A stretch of DNA of 40,159 bases from Kayfunavirus MT1B1P3: the sequence record OZ035815.1, one strand, 5' to 3'. The translations under genes were made by a program, and so were the position numbers. The notes under the pieces were generated by a model. That model worked only from the letters and a program-made list of their open reading frames with translations, had not been told where the DNA came from and did not search any database. Positions 845-17,002 of this stretch are shown here, piece after piece; the stretch's first letter is position 1, and each line of letters begins with the position of its first letter.

Positions 845-2604
845 GTAAAGATTTAGTGGCGCGTCAGGCGCTAATGACTGCCCGTATGAAGGCAGACTTC
901 GTGTTCTTCCTGTTCGTCCTGTGGAAAGCCCTGTCACTACCAGTCCCGACTCGCTGTCAGATTGACATGGCGAAGAAACTATCGGCTGGGGACAACAGGC
1001 GTTTCATCCTACAGGCGTTCCGTGGTATCGGGAAGTCATTCATAACGTGCGCATTCGTGGTATGGAAACTGTGGAACAACCCAGACTTGAAGTTCATGAT
1101 TGTGTCGGCCTCAAAGGAACGAGCAGATGCGAACTCCATATTCATCAAGCGAATCATCGACCTCATGCCTCAGCTTCAGGAACTTAAACCTAAGCAGGGG
1201 CAGCGAGATGCTGTTATCAGCTTCGACGTTGGACCAGCCAAGCCAGATCACTCACCTTCGGTTAAGTCCGTTGGTATCACTGGTCAGTTGACTGGTAGTC
1301 GTGCTGACATCCTGATTGCCGATGACGTGGAGGTTCCGAACAACTCAGCGACTCAGGCTGCACGAGACCGTCTGTCAGAGCTTGTGAAAGAGTTCGACGC
1401 TATCCTGAAGCCGGGAGGTACAATCATCTATCTGGGTACTCCTCAGAACGAGATGACCTTGTATCGTGAGCTGGAAGGTCGTGGATATACCACTACCATC
1501 TGGCCCGCTCGCTACCCACGCGATAAGAAGGACTGGCAGTCTTACGGAGACCGTCTGGCTCCTATGCTTCAGGCAGAGCTTGAAGAGGACCCTGAGTCCT
1601 TCTACTGGCGTCCTACCGATGAAGTACGATTCGATGATACGGACCTGAAGGAACGTGAGCTGTCCTATGGTAAAGCTGGCTTCGCTCTACAATTCATGCT
1701 TAACCCTAACCTGAGTGATGCCGAGAAGTACCCTCTGAAGCTCCGTGACCTTATCGTAGCAGACTTGGACCCAGCGTCTAGCCCAATGGTCTACCAATGG
1801 CTTCCTAACCCTCAGAACAAGCGTGAGGACGTTCCTAACGTTGGACTCATGGGTGACTCATACCACACGTATCAGACTGTAGGTTCTGCCTTCAGTTCGT
1901 ACACCCAGAAGATTCTGGTCATTGACCCTAGTGGTCGTGGTAAGGATGAAACAGGTTATGCGGTACTGTACCAGCTAAACGGCTACATCTTCGCTATGGA
2001 AGTTGGCGGTATGCGAGGTGGCTATGAAGACTCTACGCTGGAAGCCTTGGCTAAGATTGGTCGTAAGTGGAAGGTAAACGAATACGTCATTGAGGGTAAC
2101 TTCGGTGATGGTATGTACCTTGAGCTATTCAAGCCTGTAGCTTCCCGTATTCATCCTGCTGCTGTAACTGAAGTGAAGAGTAAGGGTCAGAAGGAACTAC
2201 GCATCTGTGACGTTCTGGAGCCTATCATGGGGTCTCACCGACTTATCGTCAACGCTGCTGCTATCGTCCAAGATTACCAGTCTGCCTCTGATAAGGATGG
2301 TGTTCGTAACCCTATCTATTCTCTCTTCTACCAGATGACACGTATCTCTCGTGAACGTGGAGCATTGGCACACGATGACCGACTTGATGCGCTGGCTATC
2401 GGTGTACAGTTCTTCGTTGAGTCTATGGCGAAGGATGCCAACAAAGGCGAACGTGAAGTCACTGAGGAGTGGCTGGAGGAACAGATGGAGAACCCACGGA
2501 AAGGCTTCGAGTCCATCCACACGGAGTTCTGGGACAATGGGGTCCGGGTAACTCACGATACGGACGACGAGCTGGGACTAGGGTCCTACGTTACGTTCCA
2601 CTAG
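841..2604 (+). CDS. 19: terminase large subunit (T7 gp19-like)
   Basis: 587-aa ORF; strong recalled similarity to T7 gp19 ([83 protein letters not shown]); TTG start at 841 has SD aaggagg 7 nt upstream; alternative ATG at 874. Confidence 0.95.
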
Positions 2605-2700
2605 CTGAATGAATAACTATAGGCGAAAACTGAATTAATAAGCAGTTAGTAACCTATAGTTACTACCAGTCTAACCTACTGTTTTACAAGGAGTTTGGAC

Positions 2701-2721
2701 TTAACTATCACTATAGGGAAG
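2701..2721 (+). promoter_or_regulatory. phage RNAP promoter (phiOR-like, after gene 19)
   Basis: ttaactatcactatagggaag matches the in-window promoter consensus; same position as T7 phiOR. Confidence 0.6.
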
Positions 2722-2901
2722 ACCCCCGGTTACTTATAGTATTACTGTAGTGAATATACATATGCAGACTTTATGCAAGACCTTAGGAGGCAGACTCCGA
2801 GTTCTTACCTAAGGCTTGCACCGATGGAAGGAGGGTGATATTAATCATAATCCCTCCAATACAGATAGTCACCGACCATAGATACAGGAGGTATGTAGCA
2901 T

Positions 2902-3060
2902 ATGGCAAAGACCAAAGCTGTACTTAAAGCTCTGGCGACCAATCGAGCTACATACAGGTTTCTTGCTGCTGTTCTACTTGCTGCTGGCGTTACTGCTGGA
3001 AGTCAGTGGGTCGGGTGGGTCGAGACTCTCGTATGTTCTCTGGTGTCTCAGTGTAATTAA
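2902..3060 (+). CDS. 19.5: small protein gp19.5-like
   Basis: 52-aa ORF translated by hand (MAKTKAVLKALATNRATYRFLAAVLLAAGVTAGSQWVGWVETLVCSLVSQCN); SD ggagg upstream; position and TYRFL motif resemble T7 gp19.5; below the ORF-track size cutoff. Confidence 0.55.
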   Translation: MAKTKAVLKALATNRATYRFLAAVLLAAGVTAGSQWVGWVETLVCSLVSQCN

Positions 3061-3093
3061 CGCAATCATGGTAACGATTCATGAGCGGAAGAC

Positions 3094-3136
3094 CTAAGGT
3101 CAGTACGTGGATAAAGACCCACTCTACTGACCTTAG
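3094..3136. repeat. perfect 12-bp inverted repeat (ctaaggtcagta / tactgaccttag) with 19-nt loop
   Basis: direct reading of sequence; lies between gene 19.5 and the inferred genome right end. Confidence 0.6.
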
Positions 3137-3299
3137 CTACTGTAGTCAAGGACTTTAGGTAACACCTTAAGAGAAGCTCACTTAGGGTCATCCTACTTAT
3201 TGGTCTATCCTAGTGTCGCCTGACCTACGGTCCTTGACCTACAGTGGCTGTGGCCTACAGTAGTGACGATGAGTTTTGGACCAAAAGTTTGAGACCACA

Positions 3300-3535
3300 T
3301 CTCACAGTTCAAGAACCTCAAGTCTCCCCATAGGCCCTCTTTAAGTCCAGACCAAAGGCCCTACCCGTTACTACTCCTTGCAGTCACAGCCAGTCTGTCA
3401 TAAGGTTGGACCGATGGTCAGGACTTCAGGTCAACGATAGGTCTAGGCTATGGCTTATGGAAGGACGATAGGTAGAGGCTATAGGTCTTCTTTGAGTCTC
3501 TATCTGTATAGTGTTATAGTATAACATTACGTCCT
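3300..3535. other. inferred physical genome left end and collapsed terminal repeat
   Basis: tctcacagttcaagaacctcaagtctccccatagg at 3300 resembles the recalled T7 left-end sequence (TCTCACAGTGTACGGACCTAAAGTTCCCCCATAGG); flanked by cctacag-type short repeats on both sides, as in the T7 concatemer junction; exact boundaries not determinable. Confidence 0.4.
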
Positions 3536-3538
3536 ACA

Positions 3539-3662
3539 CCTACAGTCTCACTAACCTACAGTCTCACTAACCTACAGTCTCACTAACCTACAGTCTCACT
3601 AACCTACAGTCTCACTAACCTACAGTCTCACTAACCTACAGTCTCACTAACCTACAGTCTCA
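3539..3662. repeat. tandem array of a 16-bp unit (cctacagtctcactaa), 7 full copies plus one partial
   Basis: counted directly: units at 3539, 3555, 3571, 3587, 3603, 3619, 3635 and a partial at 3651-3662; analogous in position to the T7 short-repeat array next to the terminal repeat. Confidence 0.9.
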
Positions 3663-3812
3663 ACCATAAGACACCAACACCTACAGTCATAGATCTACAG
3701 TTACTAGACACAGAGCTATAGACTTAAGGTCCAAGACATGTTAGTCAAAGACTATATCCTCTTACACCATGAGGCCGACGATAGCTTAATCAGTATTATT
3801 TCAAATTACCTA

Positions 3813-3841
3813 TTGACTATAGGTCAAGGATATGGCCTAAT
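3813..3841 (+). promoter_or_regulatory. candidate host sigma70 early promoter (A1-like)
   Basis: TTGACT -35, 17-bp spacer, cctaat -10; about 510 bp from inferred left end, like T7 A1. Confidence 0.3.
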
Positions 3842-3952
3842 AGCTTCCGTCAACACGACACGGCAACAACCGGATAGTGAAGACGCCGGTCCGGTCCGGT
3901 TAAGTAGTCAGCCTGTAAGACATACGAACAACAGGCAACCGACAGAAAGTAG

Positions 3953-3982
3953 TTGACAAGAAGTATATAATTAAAGTATTAT
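3953..3982 (+). promoter_or_regulatory. candidate host sigma70 early promoter (A2-like)
   Basis: TTGACA -35, 18-bp spacer, TATTAT -10. Confidence 0.4.
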
Positions 3983-4221
3983 GAATCTAAAGCAGTAAGA
4001 CGCCACCACGGAATTGGTAGCAGGTACACTCTAACCGCCTCACTAAGAGTAAATTGAGGGGCCGGGCTTCACCGAGTGAAGAAGGTCTGATTGTCGGATA
4101 CTAAGTTACTACCTATAGCGCGGTAACAGAGAACGTTGGGAACTACGCAATACCCCGAGTTGGACAGCCAACAATGCTCTTTAACAATCTGGATAAACTC
4201 TTAATGTACGCAGATAGCGAC

Positions 4222-4277
4222 TAACTACAGGGCCTTTGAGTCTACATCTGAAGGCCCTGACTGATAGTCACTAACTT
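4222..4277 (+). promoter_or_regulatory. putative early-mRNA processing hairpin (RNase III-like)
   Basis: inverted repeat agggcctt...aaggccct followed by ctgactgatagtcactaac, a motif repeated upstream of the next early genes. Confidence 0.3.
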
Positions 4278-4282
4278 AACGG

Positions 4283-4537
4283 ATGAACACTATGAAACAC
4301 TTAAGCACAATCACTAATCACAATGAAGTATTCGTGAACACTAAAGGTTATGCGTGGATTCAGCTTAAAGAGATGACAGGAGCGCGTCACCGTGTGGTAG
4401 TGCGCAAGGTCTCAAGCAAGCCGTTCAGCAACTACAGCATAGATACTGTGCGCATAGACAACGAGACCTACCTGATAGATTCGCAGATAACCGTGAGTCC
4501 TACAGCGGGCGTCTCAGCTCCTTATTTCGCTAACTGA
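4283..4537 (+). CDS. hypothetical early protein (basic, 84 aa)
   Basis: first ORF after the host-promoter region; no similarity recognised; T7 has no gene before 0.3. Confidence 0.45.
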   Translation: MNTMKHLSTITNHNEVFVNTKGYAWIQLKEMTGARHRVVVRKVSSKPFSNYSIDTVRIDNETYLIDSQITVSPTAGVSAPYFAN

Positions 4538-4610
4538 GAGTGATTAACTACAGGTCGTTAGACTTATAGCGGCCTGACTGATAGTCACTAACAACTGAGA
4601 GGATATAACT

Positions 4611-5141
4611 ATGGAACGTAACGCTAACGCATACTATGAGCTGCTGGCTGCAACCGTTGAGCTGTTCAATGAGCGTATTCAGTGCGACGAAATAGCTGAA
4701 GGCGATGACTACAGTGATGCGCTGCATGAGGTCGTAGACGGTAATGTTCCGCATTATTACCACGAGATTTACACGGTGATGGCTGCTGATGGTATTGACA
4801 ATGAGTTCGAAGACTCTGGGCTGATGCCTGAGACCAAGGACGTAACGCGTATACTACAAGCTCGCATCTATGAGGCACTGTATAACGATGTGTCTAATAG
4901 CTCTGAGGTGGTCTGGTTTGAGGCTGAAGAGGAAGACGAAAAGGCTGAAGAGGAGGACGAAAAGGCTGAATATTGGGTAGTTGACACTAGAACAGGCGAG
5001 ATAATTGAGGCAGCTGTATCACTTTGCGAGGCTATTGCATGTGCAAAAGAACTCTATGAGGAAGGTTTTCACATGCAGGTCGAAGACATCAACGATAACG
5101 TAGTGTTCGATCCTGAGGCTGCTGAGGAGGACTGCGAGTGA
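4611..5141 (+). CDS. 0.3: Ocr-like DNA-mimic anti-restriction protein with C-terminal extension (T7 gp0.3-like)
   Basis: strong recalled similarity to T7 Ocr (VPHYY..I..VMA..GID.EFEDSGLMP.TKDV.RILQARIYE); 176 aa versus about 117 in T7; very acidic; SD gagagga upstream. Confidence 0.85.
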   Translation: MERNANAYYELLAATVELFNERIQCDEIAEGDDYSDALHEVVDGNVPHYYHEIYTVMAADGIDNEFEDSGLMPETKDVTRILQARIYEALYNDVSNSSEVVWFEAEEEDEKAEEEDEKAEYWVVDTRTGEIIEAAVSLCEAIACAKELYEEGFHMQVEDINDNVVFDPEAAEEDCE

Positions 5142-5308
5142 TGGTAACTTATGGTCTCTGCCAGCACCACGTCACCAACGCCCGGCTTATGGTCAAGACC
5201 GGGAGATTAAACCACGAGGAGTCTATGCGCCTCTTGAAAGTGGTCTACAGGAGACGCAAGCGCATACACGACAGCCTACACGCTGAGGACAAGAAATATT
5301 TACCATAG
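5141..5308 (+). CDS. hypothetical small early protein (55 aa)
   Basis: hand-translated ORF; ATG overlaps the Ocr stop (tgATGg), suggesting translational coupling; basic C-terminus; below ORF-track cutoff. Confidence 0.3.
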   Translation: MVTYGLCQHHVTNARLMVKTGRLNHEESMRLLKVVYRRRKRIHDSLHAEDKKYLP

Positions 5309-5410
5309 CCTGACCATAACGCTGACAGGTGGGTACTGAGTGTTAAACTACAGGTCATCTACATGGTGGCCTGAGTGATTACCACTTGATAACTACAGAA
5401 GGAAAGAATA

Positions 5411-5758
5411 ATGACTGCTAAAACTCGCAATGTATTCTCGGTAGCATTTAAACTCAACGTTGTTAACTACTACACCTCTCTGCCTGAGGGAGTTATGGAT
5501 AGGGTGACTGAAACCGCCCAAAAGTTCGGGGTGGGAACGAGTTCGGTGAAGCGCTGGTTTACTCAGTATATCCGTGGTGAGCTTGCCATGGAAAACGCCA
5601 TTGCGGTGAGTCGCCGGCCTTCTAAGGTAATAACAGGTGATATTTACCACCTTGCAGGAAAGGACTTCAAGTCCAAAGAGGAGGCGATACGCTATGCGGT
5701 TGAGCTTGCTGGTGGGCTGACTGTAAGCAAGATGACCACTGTATCGGTGGAAGTGTAA
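5411..5758 (+). CDS. early protein with N-terminal transposase-like helix-turn-helix (IS3 OrfA-like HTH)
   Basis: N-terminus FSVAFKLNVVNYY...VTETAQKFGVGTSSVKRWFTQY resembles the IS3/IS911-family OrfA HTH pattern (FSxEFK...VA..xGV....L..W.KQY) from memory. Confidence 0.5.
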   Translation: MTAKTRNVFSVAFKLNVVNYYTSLPEGVMDRVTETAQKFGVGTSSVKRWFTQYIRGELAMENAIAVSRRPSKVITGDIYHLAGKDFKSKEEAIRYAVELAGGLTVSKMTTVSVEV

Positions 5759-5847
5759 CCGTGTAAGGCCTAGCTGAGTGATAGACGAGAGGTCATCGAC
5801 TGATAGGTGGCCTCAAAGATTACCACTTAAATTGATAGAGGTTAACT

Positions 5848-5937
5848 ATGAGTGTTGGACATTTGGTATGCTTATCTCCGGTCATCTTTCTGATAGCTTG
5901 GGGGATATACGACTGTATTAAACGGAAATCACTATGA
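5848..5937 (+). CDS. possible small hydrophobic peptide (29 aa)
   Basis: hand-translated MSVGHLVCLSPVIFLIAWGIYDCIKRKSL; stop overlaps next start (ATGA); speculative. Confidence 0.2.
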   Translation: MSVGHLVCLSPVIFLIAWGIYDCIKRKSL

Positions 5938-6131
5938 GTCTTGCACTATTGATAGCCATAGGCTATGGACTTATCGCCTACGTGCTGGTGAGAGACATCA
6001 ATAAAGCGCATAGAGTATACAAATTAAACTATGTACGTCTGGGCCGCTGGACTGTACGTCAACCTAACGGACGATTCATGCGCAACTTAGCGAACGTCTG
6101 GGATATAGCAACTATTGGGAGCAAACTGTAA
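5934..6131 (+). CDS. hypothetical early protein with N-terminal transmembrane-like segment
   Basis: 65-aa ORF, N-terminus LALLIAIGYGLIAYVLV hydrophobic; end overlaps next start (taATG). Confidence 0.4.
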   Translation: MSLALLIAIGYGLIAYVLVRDINKAHRVYKLNYVRLGRWTVRQPNGRFMRNLANVWDIATIGSKL

Positions 6132-6391
6132 TGAAAACAGTATACATTAACAAGCCATCTATCCGTAGCCGTATAGAGCAAATACAGCGTGACGAGTTCT
6201 TACATCGCCGCATGAAGGCTGAGGGCCATGAGTACGAACTGATGTGTCTGGCGTATGGTGGACGACCGATCACTGACGATGGTAAACTTTTAGTCTCAGG
6301 CTGGAAGGCGATGGACCAACGGTCAACCATCAAGCACACGACCAATGGTGACTTCAGCCATCTCCACGCTAACCAACTGATATGCAAGTGA
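6131..6391 (+). CDS. hypothetical early protein (86 aa)
   Basis: ORF with SD gggag 9 nt upstream; occupies the slot just upstream of gene 1 where T7 has the 0.7 kinase, but far too small to be a kinase. Confidence 0.45.
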   Translation: MKTVYINKPSIRSRIEQIQRDEFLHRRMKAEGHEYELMCLAYGGRPITDDGKLLVSGWKAMDQRSTIKHTTNGDFSHLHANQLICK

Positions 6392-6398
6392 TTATGAC

Positions 6399-6419
6399 TT
6401 AACTATCACTTTAGGACTA
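6399..6419 (+). promoter_or_regulatory. degenerate phage-promoter-like sequence upstream of gene 1
   Basis: ttaactatcactttaggac: matches the consensus except A to T at -3; function uncertain. Confidence 0.2.
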
Positions 6420-6488
6420 AAGGTCTAAGACTACAAGTGAAAGACCAAAGAGACTCTAAGTGAAAGACTAATAACAAGGACTTTAAGT

Positions 6489-9170
6489 ATGAGCGTCATC
6501 TCTATTGATAAACACGACTTCTCTGATGTGTCGAACGCCATTGAGCCGTTTAACCTGCTGGCTGACCACTACGGGAAGGACCTTGCAGTCAAGCAGCTTC
6601 AGCTTGAGCATGAGGCATACACTGAAGGCGAGCGACGTTTCATCAAAAACCTTGAGCGACAGACTGAGCGCGGGGAACTGGCAGACAATCAGGTCGCCAA
6701 GCCTTTGATGCAGACTCTGGTTCCTAAGATTGCGCAAGCCGTCAGGGAGTGGTATGAAGGTCCAGACGGGAAGCTTTCAACCTCTCGTCCTAGCGTAGCG
6801 TTCACCATGTTAAGCACCGAAGAGAAGGCCGTCAAGGACCGCTCTCTGCGTATCCCTTGCGAGTCTGCTGCGGTCATCATACTGAAGGTCATACTCTCCA
6901 AGCTGGTAAAGCCTGAAGGGATACCGATTACACCGATGGCCTCCGCGATAGGTCGCACACTTGAGGACGAAATCCGCTTCGGTCGCATCCGTGACAAAGA
7001 GAAAGAGCACTTCAAGAAGGCGATAGCTGATAACCTGAATAAGCGGGCCGGGGCGTCCTACAAGAAAGCCTACATGCAAGCGGTCGAGACATCCATGCTG
7101 GAGCAAGGCCAACTGGAAGATGCGTGGGGAACTTGGAGTCCTACAGAGGCTGTCCACGTTGGCATCAAGATGCTTGAGATTGTCATCCAGTCAACACAAC
7201 TGGTCGAGCTTAAGCGGTACGGTGCTGGCAATGCAGCGGCTGACGTAGAGATGGTCCACCTGTCAGACTTCTGGGTCAAGAAGATGGCACAACGAGGATT
7301 CAGCCTTGCGGGTATAGCTCCAGTCTACCAGCCTTGCGTCGTTCCACCTAAGCCGTGGACTGGTGTCGTAGGTGGTGGGTACTGGGCCAAAGGTCGCAGA
7401 CCGCTACCCCTGATTCGCTTAGGGTCTAAATCAGCGGTGGCACGTTATGAAGACGTATACATGCCTGAAGTCTATGACGCTGTGAATATCATCCAGAATA
7501 CACCTTGGAAAGTGAACAAGAAGGTACTGGACGTGGTGAACATGGTCGAGAAGTTGAACAACACGCCTATTGATGACATCCCTCAGATGGAGCCACTGAA
7601 GCCTGAAGACTATGCGGGTGAGACTGAGGAGGAACTCAAGGCATGGAAGAAGGCTGCTGCTGGTATCTATCGCCGCGAGAAGGCCCGACAGTCGCGAAGA
7701 TTGTCACTGAGCTTTATCGTTAACCAAGCGAACAAGTTCTCTCAGTTCAAGGCCATCTGGTTCCCGTACAACATGGACTGGCGTGGGCGCGTCTACGCTG
7801 TTCCGATGTTCAACCCTCAGGGTAACGACATGCAGAAAGGTCTCCTTACTCTGGCAGTCGGTAAGCCTATTGGTGCTGACGGTTTCAAATGGCTGAAGGT
7901 CCATGGTGCAAACTGCGCGGGTGTTGATAAAGTCACCTTCGAGGAGCGCATCAAGTGGGTGGAAGACAACCACGACAACATTATGGCTGCTGCTAAGGCA
8001 CCGATGGATAGCATTGAGTGGTGGGGCAAGTTAGACTCTCCGTTCTGCTTCCTTGCGTTCTGCTTCGAGTATGCTGGTGTAATGCACCACGGATTGTCTT
8101 ACTCCTGCTCATTACCGATAGCGTTCGATGGGTCATGCTCAGGGATTCAGCACTTTAGCGCGATGCTTCGTGATCACATAGGTGGACATGCAGTAAACCT
8201 AACGCCTTCCGGTAAGGTCCAAGACATCTACCGAATCGTGTCCGACCGCATTGAGGAAGAGCTTAAAGTCCTGCTGGTTAACGGCACAGACAACGAGATG
8301 GTAACTCACGAGGACAAGAAAACTGGTGAGATTACCGAACGCCTCAAGCTGGGGACACGAGAGCTGGCCCGGCAGTGGCTGACTTACGGCATGTCACGCA
8401 AGGTCACTAAGCGTTCAGTAATGACTCTGGCCTATGGGTCGAAAGAGTACGGCTTCGCAGACCAAGTTTATGAGGACATCGTGATGCCGGCGATTGACTC
8501 AGGGTCTGGCGCTATGTTCACCGAACCAAGCCAAGCGTCCCGCTTCATGGCTAAGATGATTTGGGAAGCTGTGAGCGTGACCGTAGTTGCTGCGGTTGAC
8601 GCGATGAAGTGGCTTCAGGGTGCTGCCAAGCTGCTGGCTGCTGAAGTGAAGGACAAGAAGACTGGAGAAATACTGAAGCCTTGCCTTCCGGTACACTGGG
8701 TAACACCTGATGGTTTCCCGGTCTGGCAGGAATACCGCAAGAAGGATACCACTCGTCTGAATCTGATGTTCTTAGGGTCATTCAACCTTCAGCCTACGGT
8801 CAACAAAGGCACGAAGAAAGAGCTGGACAAGCACAAGCAGGAGTCAGGCATTAGCCCGAACTTCGTCCACTCACAAGATGGTAGCCACCTACGCAAGACT
8901 GTAGTCCACACGCACCGCAAGTATGGCGTGATGTCCTTCGCAGTGATTCACGATAGCTTCGGGACCATCCCGGCTGACGCTGAGTATCTGTTCCGTGGCG
9001 TCCGTGAGACGATGGTCGAGACCTACCGCGATAACGATGTGCTGCTTGACTTCTACGAGCAGTTTGAATACCAGCTTCACGAGAGCCAGCGCGACAAGTT
9101 GCCTGAGCTTCCGAAGAAAGGTAAACTGAATATCGAAGACATCTTGTCTTCAGACTTTGCATTCGCGTAA
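6489..9170 (+). CDS. 1: DNA-directed RNA polymerase, single-subunit (T7 gp1-like)
   Basis: 893-aa ORF; conserved T7 RNAP blocks recognised (TLAYGSKEYGF, PNFVHSQDGSHLRKTVV, VIHDSFGT, final FAFA); size matches T7 RNAP (883 aa). Confidence 0.97.
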   Translation: MSVISIDKHDFSDVSNAIEPFNLLADHYGKDLAVKQLQLEHEAYTEGERRFIKNLERQTERGELADNQVAKPLMQTLVPKIAQAVREWYEGPDGKLSTSRPSVAFTMLSTEEKAVKDRSLRIPCESAAVIILKVILSKLVKPEGIPITPMASAIGRTLEDEIRFGRIRDKEKEHFKKAIADNLNKRAGASYKKAYMQAVETSMLEQGQLEDAWGTWSPTEAVHVGIKMLEIVIQSTQLVELKRYGAGNAAADVEMVHLSDFWVKKMAQRGFSLAGIAPVYQPCVVPPKPWTGVVGGGYWAKGRRPLPLIRLGSKSAVARYEDVYMPEVYDAVNIIQNTPWKVNKKVLDVVNMVEKLNNTPIDDIPQMEPLKPEDYAGETEEELKAWKKAAAGIYRREKARQSRRLSLSFIVNQANKFSQFKAIWFPYNMDWRGRVYAVPMFNPQGNDMQKGLLTLAVGKPIGADGFKWLKVHGANCAGVDKVTFEERIKWVEDNHDNIMAAAKAPMDSIEWWGKLDSPFCFLAFCFEYAGVMHHGLSYSCSLPIAFDGSCSGIQHFSAMLRDHIGGHAVNLTPSGKVQDIYRIVSDRIEEELKVLLVNGTDNEMVTHEDKKTGEITERLKLGTRELARQWLTYGMSRKVTKRSVMTLAYGSKEYGFADQVYEDIVMPAIDSGSGAMFTEPSQASRFMAKMIWEAVSVTVVAAVDAMKWLQGAAKLLAAEVKDKKTGEILKPCLPVHWVTPDGFPVWQEYRKKDTTRLNLMFLGSFNLQPTVNKGTKKELDKHKQESGISPNFVHSQDGSHLRKTVVHTHRKYGVMSFAVIHDSFGTIPADAEYLFRGVRETMVETYRDNDVLLDFYEQFEYQLHESQRDKLPELPKKGKLNIEDILSSDFAFA

Positions 9171-9185
9171 CAGCAGGAGAAGTAT

Positions 9186-9416
9186 ATGTCAATGAAACTT
9201 GTAGCACACAACAAGGCATTCAACGATGGGTCGGGGCGTTGCCATGTAGAGCTTACTTATAAGGATTTAGTCATTCTCCGAGACAGACTACAAGCTGGTG
9301 TGACTGGGTGGATTCAACCTAACGAGTACAACCTTATAGCTTCGATTGATGAAGTGCTTAACGCGTGGATGGAAGACGAGCGCACTCAGTATCCGTCATT
9401 CCCTAGAATTAGATAA
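9186..9416 (+). CDS. hypothetical protein (76 aa)
   Basis: ORF with SD (gcaggag) directly after gene 1; no homolog recognised; T7 has no gene here. Confidence 0.45.
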   Translation: MSMKLVAHNKAFNDGSGRCHVELTYKDLVILRDRLQAGVTGWIQPNEYNLIASIDEVLNAWMEDERTQYPSFPRIR

Positions 9417-9428
9417 GGAGAGAGAGCT

Positions 9429-9644
9429 ATGAAATTTGCACACAAGCATACTGGCGTTAATGGTGGGACTCAAATCGTGACCGTAACAGAACACAATGGC
9501 GCGGGTCTGGTGAAGACCACGGTCATCCCGACCAAGATGTCCAAGCAGCTTAACATCCCGTTCAAGACTCTTGTAGATCTGGTCGAGTCCAGCCACGAGA
9601 AGTACCTGAAGGACGCAGTGTCCAAGCTGGAGCAGGCCAAATGA
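9429..9644 (+). CDS. hypothetical protein (71 aa)
   Basis: ORF with SD (aaggagagag) upstream; no homolog recognised. Confidence 0.45.
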   Translation: MKFAHKHTGVNGGTQIVTVTEHNGAGLVKTTVIPTKMSKQLNIPFKTLVDLVESSHEKYLKDAVSKLEQAK

Positions 9645-9720
9645 CAGACCTACAGTCACTGGCCTTGTGGCTAGGAGCACTCGCAGTATTCACTTTAATC
9701 CAACGCAGAAGAGGTTAACC

Positions 9721-9740
9721 CTAAACTATCACTATAGGAT
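9721..9740 (+). promoter_or_regulatory. phage RNAP promoter (phi1.1-like)
   Basis: ctaaactatcactataggat matches consensus. Confidence 0.65.
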
Positions 9741-9785
9741 TAGACTCAAGGTCATGACTCAAAGTCGTGGCCTTCATGATTAACC
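9741..9785 (+). promoter_or_regulatory. putative RNase III site (R1.1-like)
   Basis: tagactcaaggtcat...gtggccttcatgattaacc; resembles T7 R1.1 (aaggtcaatgagtggcctttatgattgacctt) from memory. Confidence 0.4.
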
Positions 9786-9815
9786 TTAAATAAACACTAC
9801 TGGAGATTTAACCAC

Positions 9816-9995
9816 ATGTATCAGAACACTATCAACTTCGAGCGCATTCGTGAACGTCAGCAGACTGAAGACTACATCCCGAATGGACGCAAGCTGAACA
9901 AGACCAAGCGTGGTGGTGGTGTCAAAGGCGCTTTCCGTAATGCTGAAGGTAAAGACTCTCTGGTCAACCAAGAGAAATACTTCGTAGGAGCATAA
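9816..9995 (+). CDS. 1.1: small basic protein gp1.1-like
   Basis: 59-aa hand-translated ORF containing GRKLNKTKR, as recalled for T7 gp1.1; below ORF-track cutoff. Confidence 0.55.
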   Translation: MYQNTINFERIRERQQTEDYIPNGRKLNKTKRGGGVKGAFRNAEGKDSLVNQEKYFVGA

Positions 9996-9999
9996 CCAA

Positions 10000-10263
10000 A
10001 TGGGCCGACTTTATAGTGGCAACCTCAACGCTTTCAGAGCAGCGTGTAACAGGCTCTACCAGTTAGACTTCGCTGTTATATCTCAGGAGTTTCAAGACCA
10101 TGTGTCACGCCAAGAGTGCATGAGACTCAGGGTGGAGGACCGAGCTGGTAACATCTTCGCGCTTGAGACCTTCACACACTACGATGAAGACGTGCTGTAT
10201 AATACTGCAACCAACTACCTCAACGGTCTCGCTGACCATATCGACACATGGAGCAAAGCATAA
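10000..10263 (+). CDS. 1.2: inhibitor of host dGTP triphosphohydrolase (T7 gp1.2-like)
   Basis: N-terminus MGRLYSGNLNAFRAA...RLRVEDRAGN matches recalled T7 gp1.2 (MGRLYSGNLAAFKAA...RLRIEDRSGN). Confidence 0.8.
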   Translation: MGRLYSGNLNAFRAACNRLYQLDFAVISQEFQDHVSRQECMRLRVEDRAGNIFALETFTHYDEDVLYNTATNYLNGLADHIDTWSKA

Positions 10264-11339
10264 TGACAACTATTAAAACCAACCCGCACCGCGCTGTAGA
10301 TTACTCTGAGTCTGGCGTTAAGAAGGCACTGGAAGCAGCCGGGTCTCTGGAAGCTGAAGTGAAGTACGACGGTGTGCGACTGAATCTCCCGGTCCTGCGT
10401 GAAGGTGAGACCTACTGGTTGAGCCGTGAGTCTAAACCTCTTCCAGCCTTGGAGTGGATGAACTCTGAGTTAGGGAATGCGTGGACACAAGCTGACTGGC
10501 GATGGTTCCTGCGTCAAGCTGGCTACGAAGGTGTGGGCATGATGATTGATGGCGAGGTCATGGTCAAAGGTGTAGACTTCAACACCTCCTCAGGTCTCAT
10601 CCGCACGAAGTGGCTGAAGCCTAACAACGAGGAGTTCGCTGAATGCTATCCGTGGCGTGGTAAGAAGGTCCCGTTCTGGGCAGCCCGGTCAAGACTTCAG
10701 GTTGTGGTATACGGTGTCGTAGACATGACAACCATTGCTGACCCGAAAGCCGAAGGTCCTATCCATAGCGTCACACGCCTGAAGGCTGAAGCTATCGTCC
10801 CTCTCCTCCAGAAATACTTCCCGGAAATCGACTGGGTTCTGTCTGAGTCACACACGGTCTATGACCTTGAGTCGCTCAACTCCCTGTACGAAGAGAAGCG
10901 TCTGGAAGGACATGAGGGTCTGGTAGTCAAAGACCCGCTGGGTAAGTGGAAGCGTGGCAAGAAGTCAGGCATGTGGAAAATGAAGCCTGAGGATACCATC
11001 GACGGGACCGTATGCGGACTCGTGTGGGGGACTCCGGGTAAGGCTAACGAAGGTAAGGTCATCGGCTTCGAGGTTCTGCTGGAGGACGGAATGGTAGTTA
11101 ATGCTTGTGGTCTGACTGAAGAACAGAAGAACGAGTTCACAGCTAACGTCGCTGAATCTAGTGGTTATACCTTGGCTGGTGGCCATGTGGTTATTCAGGA
11201 TGGGACCGAGAAGATCAACCCATACGAAGGCTGGCAGTGCGAAGTCCTCTTCATGGAGCGGTTCCCAGATGGTTCCCTTCGTCACCCTAGCTTCAAGTGC
11301 TGGCGCGGAACGGAAGATAACCCAACTGTTAAGAGTTAA
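10248..11339 (+). CDS. 1.3: ATP-dependent DNA ligase (T7 gp1.3-like)
   Basis: 363 aa; adenylation motif KYDGVR near N-terminus; size and position match T7 ligase. Confidence 0.95.
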   Translation: MEQSIMTTIKTNPHRAVDYSESGVKKALEAAGSLEAEVKYDGVRLNLPVLREGETYWLSRESKPLPALEWMNSELGNAWTQADWRWFLRQAGYEGVGMMIDGEVMVKGVDFNTSSGLIRTKWLKPNNEEFAECYPWRGKKVPFWAARSRLQVVVYGVVDMTTIADPKAEGPIHSVTRLKAEAIVPLLQKYFPEIDWVLSESHTVYDLESLNSLYEEKRLEGHEGLVVKDPLGKWKRGKKSGMWKMKPEDTIDGTVCGLVWGTPGKANEGKVIGFEVLLEDGMVVNACGLTEEQKNEFTANVAESSGYTLAGGHVVIQDGTEKINPYEGWQCEVLFMERFPDGSLRHPSFKCWRGTEDNPTVKS

Positions 11340-15059: not shown

Positions 15060-16939
<1,880 letters not shown>

Positions 16940-16940
16940 G

Positions 16941-16985
16941 TCTAGACTCAAGGTCATTCACAGCGAGTGGCCTTTATGATTAGAC
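16941..16985 (+). promoter_or_regulatory. putative RNase III site upstream of DNA polymerase
   Basis: tctagactcaaggtcat...agtggcctttatgattagac, third copy of the conserved motif. Confidence 0.4.
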
Positions 16986-17002
16986 TAAACGGAGGATTAA
17001 CC

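Follow-up and report, generated by a model that had tools for sequence, protein, structure and literature searches.

T7-like phages have compact early regions made up of genes for host takeover and anti-defence functions, among them Ocr, gp0.4 and a protein kinase. This kinase, gp0.7 (T7K; PF27024, phrog_2828), has its place in the early region of T7, T3, SRT7 and Dev2 (kinase-only form), and the T7 enzyme has recently been reported to disarm many defences (PMC13645617). In K1F (AM084414; genes 0.3, 0.35, 0.36, 0.37, 0.38 and 1), by comparison, only gp0.35–0.38 are encoded between ocr and gene 1; a search of the literature found no explicit statement that gene 0.7 is missing from K1F. Escherichia phage Mt1B1_P3, to which the DNA investigated here is 100 % identical, is a K1F-like Kayfunavirus that shares genus and gene order with K1F, and both phages are without the kinase.

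Early module of Mt1B1_P3 compared with K1F and T7

The window (the whole stretch of DNA that was analysed, 40,159 nt) carries its early module on the + strand in the order Ocr, gp0.4 homologue, hairpin, 115-aa gene, hairpin, 29-aa ORF, gp0.37-like gene, gp0.38-like gene and RNA polymerase. The left border is Ocr (gp0.3; 4611–5141), which was recognized by the Pfam ocr family over residues 7–99 (E 2.4e-30), by phrog_2568 (E 3e-55) and by tblastn with T7 gp0.3 (E 8e-28), and which has a C-terminal extension of ~60 aa. The right border is the T7-type single-subunit RNA polymerase (gene 1; 6489–9170, + strand), an 893-aa ORF whose identical counterpart is listed with the RPOL_N and RNA_pol families in the precomputed Pfam table. 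The four ORFs described from the sequence alone, at 5141(5138)–5308, 5411–5758, 5934–6131 and 6131–6391, were all found on the + strand between these borders, and 115 aa was indeed the greatest start-to-stop ORF length between ocr and gene 1. An Rfam scan of 2600–10300 gave no match.

The module is collinear with that of K1F for Ocr, gp0.35 (gp0.4-like), gp0.37, gp0.38 and gene 1, with near-identical DNA for gp0.37 and gp0.38. The two phages differ in the middle of the interval: in K1F a single hairpin precedes the 55-aa gp0.36 and there is no 115-aa gene, whilst Mt1B1_P3 has a hairpin, the 115-aa gene, a second hairpin and a 29-aa ORF.

The three ORFs flanking the 115-aa gene had been called unrecognized, a description that did not hold. 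The 55-aa ORF at 5141–5308 (+ strand), which overlaps the ocr stop codon at an ATGA, is by profile and by position after ocr a member of the T7 gp0.4 family, whose expected activity is FtsZ inhibition, and a homologue of K1F gp0.35: PF26807 (Phage_T7_GP04) is listed in precomputed Pfam, with no weak mark, for the identical gene in MT496969 and MZ726794, phrog_5058 was matched at E 9e-25 (T7 gp0.4 itself cross-matches phrog_5058 at 9e-5), and the best tblastn match of T7 gp0.4 in the window falls on this ORF (E 0.12). The 65-aa ORF at 5934–6131 (+ strand; phrog_2385, E 1.9e-31, and a note in the ASO2B annotation) is a homologue of K1F gp0.37 and has the hydrophobic N-terminus ascribed to it, and the 86-aa ORF at 6131–6391 (+ strand; phrog_7066, E 3.9e-38) is a homologue of K1F gp0.38.

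A further small ORF of 29 codons (5848–5937, + strand), missed in the sequence-only reading and unannotated in the phage's record, encodes a hydrophobic, putatively membrane-bound peptide (GRAVY 1.08) and is a positional analogue of T7 gene 0.5. It is preceded by a GAGG Shine–Dalgarno sequence, overlaps the next gene at an ATGA and was conserved over its full length in 93 phage records (tblastn). A 47-aa GTG ORF at 5778–5921 (phrog_36394) was rejected as a gene, as it starts within a hairpin and has no Shine–Dalgarno sequence; the conserved ORF is the 29-aa one, in another frame.

All of the sequence tests applied agreed that a 0.7-type kinase is absent. T7 gp0.7, SRT7 gp42 and Dev2 gp0.5, three kinases of the T7 type that have diverged from one another, were used as tblastn and phmmer queries; as a positive control, each recovered the others at E 1e-34 to 1e-70. 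Against the whole 40-kb window their best tblastn E-values were 1.0–3.6, and phmmer against all stop-to-stop frames gave no match at E<=10. PF27024 (Phage_T7_kinase) was absent from the precomputed Pfam table for the called genes from gp0.2 to ligase of MT496969. Nothing between ocr and gene 1 approached the length of a kinase ORF (at least ~240 aa), the longest stop-to-stop frames in 5141–6488 being 121 aa (+ strand) and 139 aa (− strand). A local Pfam-A scan for kinase and gp0.4 was uninformative because T7's own gp0.7 and gp0.4 received no match from the copy used, which was without PF27024 and PF26807.

Since K1F likewise has no kinase between ocr and gene 1, the Mt1B1_P3 genome is not peculiar in this respect: to be without the kinase is normal for the K1F lineage. 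Nor does the 115-aa gene stand in place of the kinase, as had been proposed: most K1F-like phages have neither, and five other lineages have a homologue beside the kinase. Public annotation already implies both the lack of a kinase and the HTH resemblance described below.

A two-domain protein of 115 aa

The ORF at 5411–5758 has an AGAAGGA Shine–Dalgarno sequence 7 nt upstream and homologues in several genera; by these sequence comparisons it is a real gene whose product has two domains. No paper describing the family was found in the literature, and PADLOC and NCBIfam scans yielded no functional lead past the transposase-type HTH.

The N-terminal domain (residues 1–55; 5411–5575, + strand) is basic (pI 10.1) and was predicted to form a tri-helical HTH, with AlphaFold2 pLDDT of 79–90 across the three helices and a predicted fold resembling solved transposase/homeodomain-like DNA-binding domains. 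The close resemblance to the IS3/IS911 OrfA HTH that had been proposed proved overstated for the Mt1B1_P3 protein itself, which scored 14.0 bits (E 0.062) with Pfam HTH_Tnp_1 (PF01527; gathering cut-off 24.1 bits), fell below every curated family threshold and had Brinker as its best single match (4e-4). Evidence for the class of the domain came also from its relatives. Among 21 homologues, 14 had a match to HTH_Tnp_1 (best E 3.6e-6); the clear relatives P0041 (40.4 bits) and P0038 (25.0 bits) scored above the cut-off; precomputed PF01527 assignments were present for P0025 and P0032; P0032 matched IS66 TnpA at E 4e-11; and several family members had IS3 N-terminal matches. A profile search of the PDB gave Brinker at E 0.003, whilst Foldseek E-values against the PDB were not significant. 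Taken together, the profiles (HTH_Tnp_1, IS66 TnpA and IS3) and the modelled folds (CENP-B, Brinker and IS629 OrfA) place the domain in the transposase/homeodomain-like HTH class, and the proposal that the protein is a DNA-binding regulator is plausible; the basic pI of the domain speaks for DNA binding.

Taken at the level of the protein family, the likeness to IS3-family OrfA and IS66 TnpA (PF01527; 2rn7, 2jn6) lies in a tri-helical HTH of the same Pfam family; the predicted fold is shared, as are the motifs F-K-x-x-V and W. Likeness to the Brinker, CENP-B and pipsqueak-type domains (2glo, 1hlv) of eukaryotic transcription and centromere proteins is at the level of fold or superfamily only, with 12–22 % identity.

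As the protein bears recognizable similarity only to the N-terminal HTH domains of transposases, and the homologues in SFPH2 and Phoria are named ‘Transposase’ in UniProt, the gene might be thought a truncated IS3/IS66 OrfA/TnpA left by a past transposition and without function in the phage. This explanation is effectively refuted. No DDE/OrfB transposase ORF is present and no ORF >115 aa follows in the ocr–gene 1 interval; the 115-aa gene has neither the slippery heptamer (A6G or A7) of a frameshift site nor the leucine heptads of a zipper; flanking inverted repeats of the kind that form IS ends were looked for and not found; and the score with NCBIfam transpos_IS3, for which the cut-off is 160 bits, was 14 bits. 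Moreover, the protein bears a C-terminal domain that is unrelated to IS3/IS66 proteins, specific to this phage protein family and, as set out below, under purifying selection. Its architecture was seen repeatedly in early regions of Autographiviridae, in several genera, and in no other setting across 5.8 billion clusters. The 115-aa protein is thus not a transposase.

The C-terminal domain (residues 56–115 with the stop codon; 5576–5758, + strand) is near-invariant in family alignments and belongs to no known family. Its ~60 residues were predicted to form a helix, a β-hairpin, a second helix and a tail (AlphaFold2 pLDDT ~60–82). Comparison of this half with Dev2 revealed 17 synonymous versus five nonsynonymous codon differences, a pattern of purifying selection. 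An exhaustive phmmer search with the domain recovered family members only, apart from repeat-protein false positives: the BNR, cadherin-like and ‘VTGDIQHLAG’ repeat proteins, whose long multi-stretch matches were rejected as artefacts of repeats and composition.

In four natural variants the C-terminal domain is kept in frame in another setting, namely in fusions to SAMase-N (Dev2), to Ocr (IMEP24) and to gp0.4-N (P0029); in the fourth, P0019, a stretch of 19 residues at the N-terminus stands in place of residues 1–45. Such variants, which keep the C-terminal domain and dispense with the HTH, point to a selected function that may not require DNA binding. One tentative possibility is that the C-terminal domain is an autonomous effector that acts, early in infection, on a protein or a defence system of the host, with the HTH merely concentrating it on DNA; that such a domain would be a previously undescribed one is an equally tentative suggestion. 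Selection acting on the C-terminal domain would then explain two things, its in-frame retention behind other N-termini in the four variants with a deletion or replacement, and the company of the kinase in which the gene is found in several lineages.

Hairpins and distribution of the gene

The 115-aa gene lies between two hairpins. The upstream one (5336–5393, + strand) has two stems, is of the T7 RNase III-site type by its fold and its alignment with T7 hairpins, and is at the position of T7 R0.5. The downstream one (5774–5834, + strand) is of the same type; it corresponds to the copy present in K1F, which precedes gp0.36 and is near-identical, and it forms a direct repeat with 5336–5387 (81–87 % identity, 438-nt spacing). 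Both could be aligned with the T7 intergenic hairpins at 851–907, 1426–1485 and 3099–3155, and in this alignment 94.7 % of cells were paired, with 10 covarying (compensatory) pairs, compared with <=44 % in slid controls. A covariance model scored the two at 69.3 and 67 bits, respectively, values that are circular because both were among its eight training sequences; the model also recovered the T7 hairpin at 5846–5904, which was outside the training set, and all 34 of its matches were on the + strand.

These T7 hairpins presumably correspond to the RNase III sites R0.3, R0.5 and R1, whose positions, not annotated in the sequence records used, were reportedly set out by Dunn and Studier in 1983. 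The window hairpins resemble T7 R0.3, R0.5, R1 and R1.1 in having two stems with an internal loop, in alignable sequence, in intergenic position and in lying on the transcribed strand, and are putative RNase III sites. They differ from the T7 set in that the cassette contributes an extra copy and none lies upstream of gene 1. The ‘Rho-independent terminators’ annotated around the gene in ASO2B were rejected: the structures have no U-tracts, a terminator scan was negative there, and they are these RNase III-type hairpins.

Arranged in this way, the 115-aa gene forms an optional cassette, a unit of ~438 bp that consists of hairpin, Shine–Dalgarno sequence and ORF and is bounded by two diverged hairpin copies. 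A 123-aa variant in pO2 is also situated between two hairpins. Flanking hairpins were absent where the gene adjoins the kinase (SRT7, L009, L011 and L013), so the cassette structure is specific to Kayfunavirus.

All the homologues examined are in the early region of Autographiviridae phages. The gene was carried by 25 records, compared with 237 that matched the region, and was absent from most K1F-like phages; it is a rare, optional early gene, and its small product is probably DNA-binding. A 16-nt tandem repeat at the left end of the genome was considered as a feature linked to the HTH gene and rejected, its copy number not tracking presence of the gene.

Homologues are found directly 5′ of a T7-type kinase in SRT7, in the metagenomic T7-like contigs L009, L011 and L013, and in Dev2, where the adjoining homologue is the C-terminal-domain fusion. 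Since the T7 kinase is reportedly directed to nucleic-acid-binding proteins via a DNA-binding C-terminal domain (PMC13645617), the protein could be a partner of the kinase, either a DNA-tethered adaptor or a protected or regulated substrate, and in kinase-less K1F-like phages the leftover of a two-gene unit. This is improbable, however: Kayfunaviruses, which have no kinase, keep the gene intact and conserved; it is missing from T7, T3 and the majority of phages with a kinase; in L012 and VLCpiA3d ocr and other genes intervene between it and the kinase; and adjacency may mean no more than that the early region is small.

In VLCpiA3d and L012 the homologue is directly upstream of ocr, whilst in Mt1B1_P3 it lies 3′ of that gene. 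A small HTH protein in one operon with an anti-restriction gene recalls the anti-CRISPR-associated (Aca) HTH proteins, which are reported to repress acr promoters (PMC9410906), and T7 Gp5.7, which is reported to repress host-polymerase promoters on phage DNA (PMC5569994). By analogy, the protein might be an autoregulator that binds the phage early promoters or early operon and damps Ocr and other early genes. We consider this unlikely, as most K1F-like phages share the promoters but not the gene, natural variants exist in which the HTH is missing and the C-terminal domain retained, and promoter-like sites do not outnumber those in shuffled sequence. The last comparison was also the ground for rejecting the sigma-70 promoter annotated near the gene in ASO2B.

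Proposed role in infection

The reading that we prefer, at a probability of roughly 0.6, is that the interval is an ordinary K1F-like early accessory module of a kinase-less lineage with an optional 115-aa cassette, which would encode a host-takeover or counter-defence protein; it is not a replacement for the kinase. The interval would be a class I module, expressed early and transcribed by host RNA polymerase. Cleavage by RNase III would free the cassette as a separate mRNA, and recombination between the hairpin copies may account for its gain and loss. The protein would be produced in the first minutes of infection, its HTH binding DNA and its C-terminal domain serving as an effector or oligomerization module, and the two domains would jointly aid host takeover or counter-defence, as do Ocr, gp0.4 and the kinase of other phages.

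Nothing known is overturned by these results, which are ordinary to mildly interesting. As Mt1B1_P3 and K1F-like phages are in experimental use, the function of the 115-aa gene would be cheap to test. An accessory early gene that is rare, and whose product contains a strongly constrained domain of no known family, may reasonably be regarded as a candidate for some new function directed at the host, and the hairpin copies that bound it suggest a simple route by which such genes may be shuffled among K1F-like phages.

Early region and absence of the T7-type kinase

The region 4200-6600 of the window was identical (100 %) to Escherichia phage Mt1B1_P3 (MT496969) and shared 99.5 % identity with vB_EcoA_ASO2B, both of which are Kayfunavirus, i.e. 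K1F-like Studiervirinae. The genome in the window is circularly permuted: the large terminase occupies 841-2604, the left end together with the early promoters ~2700-4200, Ocr (176 aa) 4611-5141 and the RNA polymerase (gene 1) 6489-9170. At its C-terminus, Ocr extends ~60 aa past the ocr domain of Pfam; its gene also contains a short repeat of 21 nt at 4921-4970. In the non-coding DNA of the left end, upstream of the early promoters, the 16-nt unit ACCTACAGTCTCACTA occurs in 7.8 perfect tandem copies (3538-3662); its copy number differs between close relatives (one in K1F, three in ASO2B and two in the Logan contig SRR18158884_1429) and did not track with presence of the helix–turn–helix (HTH) gene among them.

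The four ORFs that the sequence-only reading had placed between ocr and gene 1 (5141-5308, 5411-5758, 5934-6131 and 6131-6391) were all present. In T7, this interval holds genes 0.4, 0.5 and 0.6 and the 359-aa kinase gp0.7; the same reading had seen no ORF of kinase size here. The longest open frames in 5141-6488 were 121 codons on the (+) strand and 139 codons on the (-) strand. Three diverged members of the kinase family (T7 gp0.7, Foetvirus SRT7 gp42 and the kinase-only Dev2 gp0.5), which detect one another at E values of 1e-34 to 1e-70, were used as queries; tblastn against the whole window gave nothing better than E ~1, and phmmer against every stop-to-stop frame of the window gave no match. 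The local Pfam-A library does not include PF27024 (kinase), PF26807 (gp0.4) or PF26813 (gp0.5), and T7's own kinase and gp0.4 were unmatched in it, so that a negative hmmscan there is uninformative for T7 early-gene families. In the precomputed Pfam table, PF27024 (Phage_T7_kinase) was listed on SRT7-like and metagenomic relatives and, in the stretch shown, on none of the called genes of MT496969 or MZ726794. As judged from open-frame lengths, tblastn, phmmer and this table, all negative, the kinase is absent from the window, as that reading had correctly noted. In K1F, the type phage of the genus, the interval is taken up by gp0.35 to gp0.38 alone; the absence is therefore a trait of the lineage, not of the Mt1B1_P3 genome alone, and K1F-type phages normally lack the kinase. 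The absence is not genus-wide, since the Kayfunavirus Cronobacter phage Dev2 has a 244-aa homologue consisting of the kinase domain only.

Three of the ORFs had been left unrecognized, which does not hold for 5141-5308: it encodes a gp0.4 homologue (PF26807, Phage_T7_GP04, on the identical gene), T7 gp0.4 matched its PHROG (phrog_5058) at 9e-5 with a reverse match also seen, and this ORF was the sole notable tblastn match of T7 gp0.4 in the window. T7 gp0.4 is reportedly the FtsZ inhibitor (Kiro et al. 2013, cited in PMC7693777). The products of 5934-6131 (phrog_2385) and 6131-6391 (phrog_7066) are homologues of K1F gp0.37 and gp0.38, respectively, without assigned function. A further (+) strand ORF at 5848-5937, missed in the sequence-only reading and unannotated in MT496969, encodes a strongly hydrophobic 29-aa product, MSVGHLVCLSPVIFLIAWGIYDCIKRKSL; it has its own Shine–Dalgarno sequence (GAGG), overlaps the following gene at an ATGA, is kept at full length in 93 phage records, and is the positional analogue of the small, hydrophobic T7 gp0.5.

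Distribution of the 115-aa protein family

The family of the 115-aa protein (5411-5758, + strand) is very small. Of 5.8 billion clusters formed at 90 % identity, 34 contained homologues, and an exhaustive search with the C-terminal half gave ~10 genuine representatives among 1.84 billion; long multi-hit proteins in the latter search were repeat artefacts and were discarded. The gene was carried by 25 of 50,697 phage records (isolate genomes), the surrounding region being matched in 237. All homologues that could be placed belonged to early regions of Autographiviridae phages. In the Foetvirus SRT7 and three metagenomic T7-like contigs the homologue is immediately upstream of a T7-type kinase of 385-411 aa. 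The early genes of Przondovirus VLCpiA3d and contig L012 begin with the homologue, which precedes ocr, and the kinase follows farther downstream. In Dev2 (L005 759-1813), an ORF in which the family's C-terminal domain is fused to the N-terminus of a SAMase directly precedes the kinase homologue, which lacks the shut-off domain. Phimunavirus Phoria has a partial relative. In view of these contexts the protein normally coexists with a kinase, and the earlier idea that the 115-aa gene is present instead of the kinase was wrong. The protein might function together with the kinase, since the gene adjoins it in relatives and T7K is reportedly targeted to nucleic-acid-binding proteins (PMC13645617); we consider this quite unlikely. 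The contig SRR18158884_1429, which encodes an identical 115-aa protein, carries an HNH_3 endonuclease gene (1909-2451) directly after the large terminase gene and has no called gp0.4 homologue.

A transposase-type HTH joined to a conserved C-terminal domain

For the window protein alone, profile evidence for the N-terminal domain (~residues 1-55) was sub-threshold (Brinker DBD, E 4e-4; HTH_Tnp_ISL3, 0.005; HTH_28, 0.008; HTH_23, 0.015; HTH_Tnp_1, 0.06). At the family level the HTH evidence is sound: 14 of 21 homologues matched HTH_Tnp_1, the family members P0041 (40.4 bits) and P0038 (25.0 bits) scored above its cut-off of 24.1 bits, P0032 reached 4e-11 with the model of IS66 TnpA, and for several members there was a match to positions 1-47 of the model for IS3 transposase. 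Searched against the PDB, the family profile matched the Brinker DNA-binding domain (E 0.003) and, more weakly, SETMAR, Cgl2762 and TnsB DNA-binding domains. AlphaFold2 with a more diverse alignment predicted three helices (11-23, 31-39 and 43-54; pLDDT 79-90), and the domain is basic (pI 10.1). The HTH call thus survived profile and structure comparison of the family, although the description of the window protein as 'closely resembling' IS3/IS911 OrfA was too strong. The resemblance is real and already implicit in public databases: the homologues in SFPH2 and Phoria are entered in UniProt as 'Transposase', and one metagenomic copy carries the name of the SiR5 structural-genomics protein. Descent of the ORF from an insertion sequence, as a relic, is effectively excluded by the lack of an OrfB or DDE ORF, slippery heptamer, leucine zipper and flanking inverted repeats, and by a score of 14 bits against the full-length IS3 model (cut-off 160); on these features the gene is not an IS element.

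The C-terminal domain (~residues 56-115) is the most conserved part of the protein, with the signature G-x-L-S-x-x-N-A-I-A-V-S-R-x-P ... Y-H-L-A-G-K-x-F-x-S-K-x-E-A-I-R-Y-A-V-E-L-A-G-G, and is nearly invariant even between homologues whose HTH domains share only ~30-40 % identity. Over its 61 codons the window and Dev2 differ at 17 synonymous and five nonsynonymous codons, and the window and pO2 at 15 and 11, respectively; by this comparison, conservation acts on the protein and not on the DNA. The predicted fold (pLDDT ~60-82) starts with a short helix and continues with a beta-hairpin (79-81, 84-86) and a second helix (89-99) before the C-terminal tail, and sequence searches of Pfam, PHROG, NCBIfam, PADLOC and the PDB gave no match. 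The domain recurs in frame behind unrelated N-termini: the first ~45 residues of SAMase in Dev2 gp0.2, ~130 residues of Ocr in phage IMEP24 (L006 1275-1835), the first 40 residues of the gp0.4 homologue in P0029 and, in P0019, 19 different N-terminal residues in place of residues 1-45. The IMEP24 junction falls at a shared (E/D)AIA motif. These ORFs look like early-region deletions that lost the HTH and kept the C-terminal domain translatable, a pattern that is only suggestive because predicted-protein searches favour in-frame cases.

Hairpin-bounded cassette and possible role

A unit of ~438 bp in the window is additional to the K1F arrangement. The 115-aa gene is flanked by two copies of a ~58-nt element (5336-5393 and 5774-5834), whose repeat cores share 81-87 % identity, and the one copy that K1F has is nearly identical to the downstream one. 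In the fold of each copy, an internal loop separates the lower stem from a G+C-rich upper stem; the element is also found ahead of the gp0.2-like gene (4213-4279) and of ocr (4536-4596). It could be aligned with the T7 intergenic hairpins 851-907, 1426-1485 and 3099-3155, which we take to be the RNase III sites R0.3, R0.5 and R1 (Dunn and Studier 1983). In the alignment of eight sequences 94.7 % of cells were paired, with compensatory changes in 10 of 19 pairs, compared with only 28-44 % pairing when partners were slid by 1-3 columns. A covariance model trained on these eight gave 34 of 34 matches on the transcribed (+) strand. It found T7 5846-5904, outside the training set and presumably the R1.1 position, and further (+) hairpins in the window at 290-351 (upstream of ORF 395-844), 9733-9794 (upstream of the gene 1.1 homologue 9816-9995, PF08200) and 16936-16993. 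Directly upstream of gene 1, where T7 has R1 and E. coli promoter C, the stretch 6391-6489 contained no hairpin of the RNase III type according to the model; a phage-promoter-like 23-mer, ACTTAACTATCACTTTAGGACTA, occurs there (6386-6419) and at 2688-2721 and 9709-9742. The elements annotated as 'rho-independent terminators' in ASO2B are these RNase III-type hairpins and lack a U-tract.

In pO2, a 123-aa variant of the gene likewise lies between two hairpins. Other Kayfunaviruses have different small genes in the same slot (gp0.36 in K1F, a 50-aa ORF in pO91, and gp0.36 plus the 29-aa ORF in PE3-1), which makes it a mosaic. A scan around the 115-aa gene detected no terminator and no promoter above background. 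The gene would be expressed as part of the polycistronic early mRNA, from which RNase III would release it, and homology between the two hairpin copies may allow the cassette to be gained or lost.

The predicted protein combines a basic transposase-type HTH with a constrained C-terminal domain, and its gene, optional within the genus, sits among host-takeover and anti-restriction genes. A regulator of phage early promoters resembling Aca or Gp5.7, for which there are precedents (PMC9410906, PMC5569994), is an unlikely identity. We favour an early accessory, putatively DNA-binding protein acting in takeover or counter-defence, in which the C-terminal domain would carry the selected activity, either partner binding or oligomerization. 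Mildly new are the two-domain architecture with an uncharacterized and very conserved C-terminal domain, the repeated survival of this domain within fusion ORFs, the frequent position of genes of this type next to a kinase, and the bounding of the cassette by hairpins.
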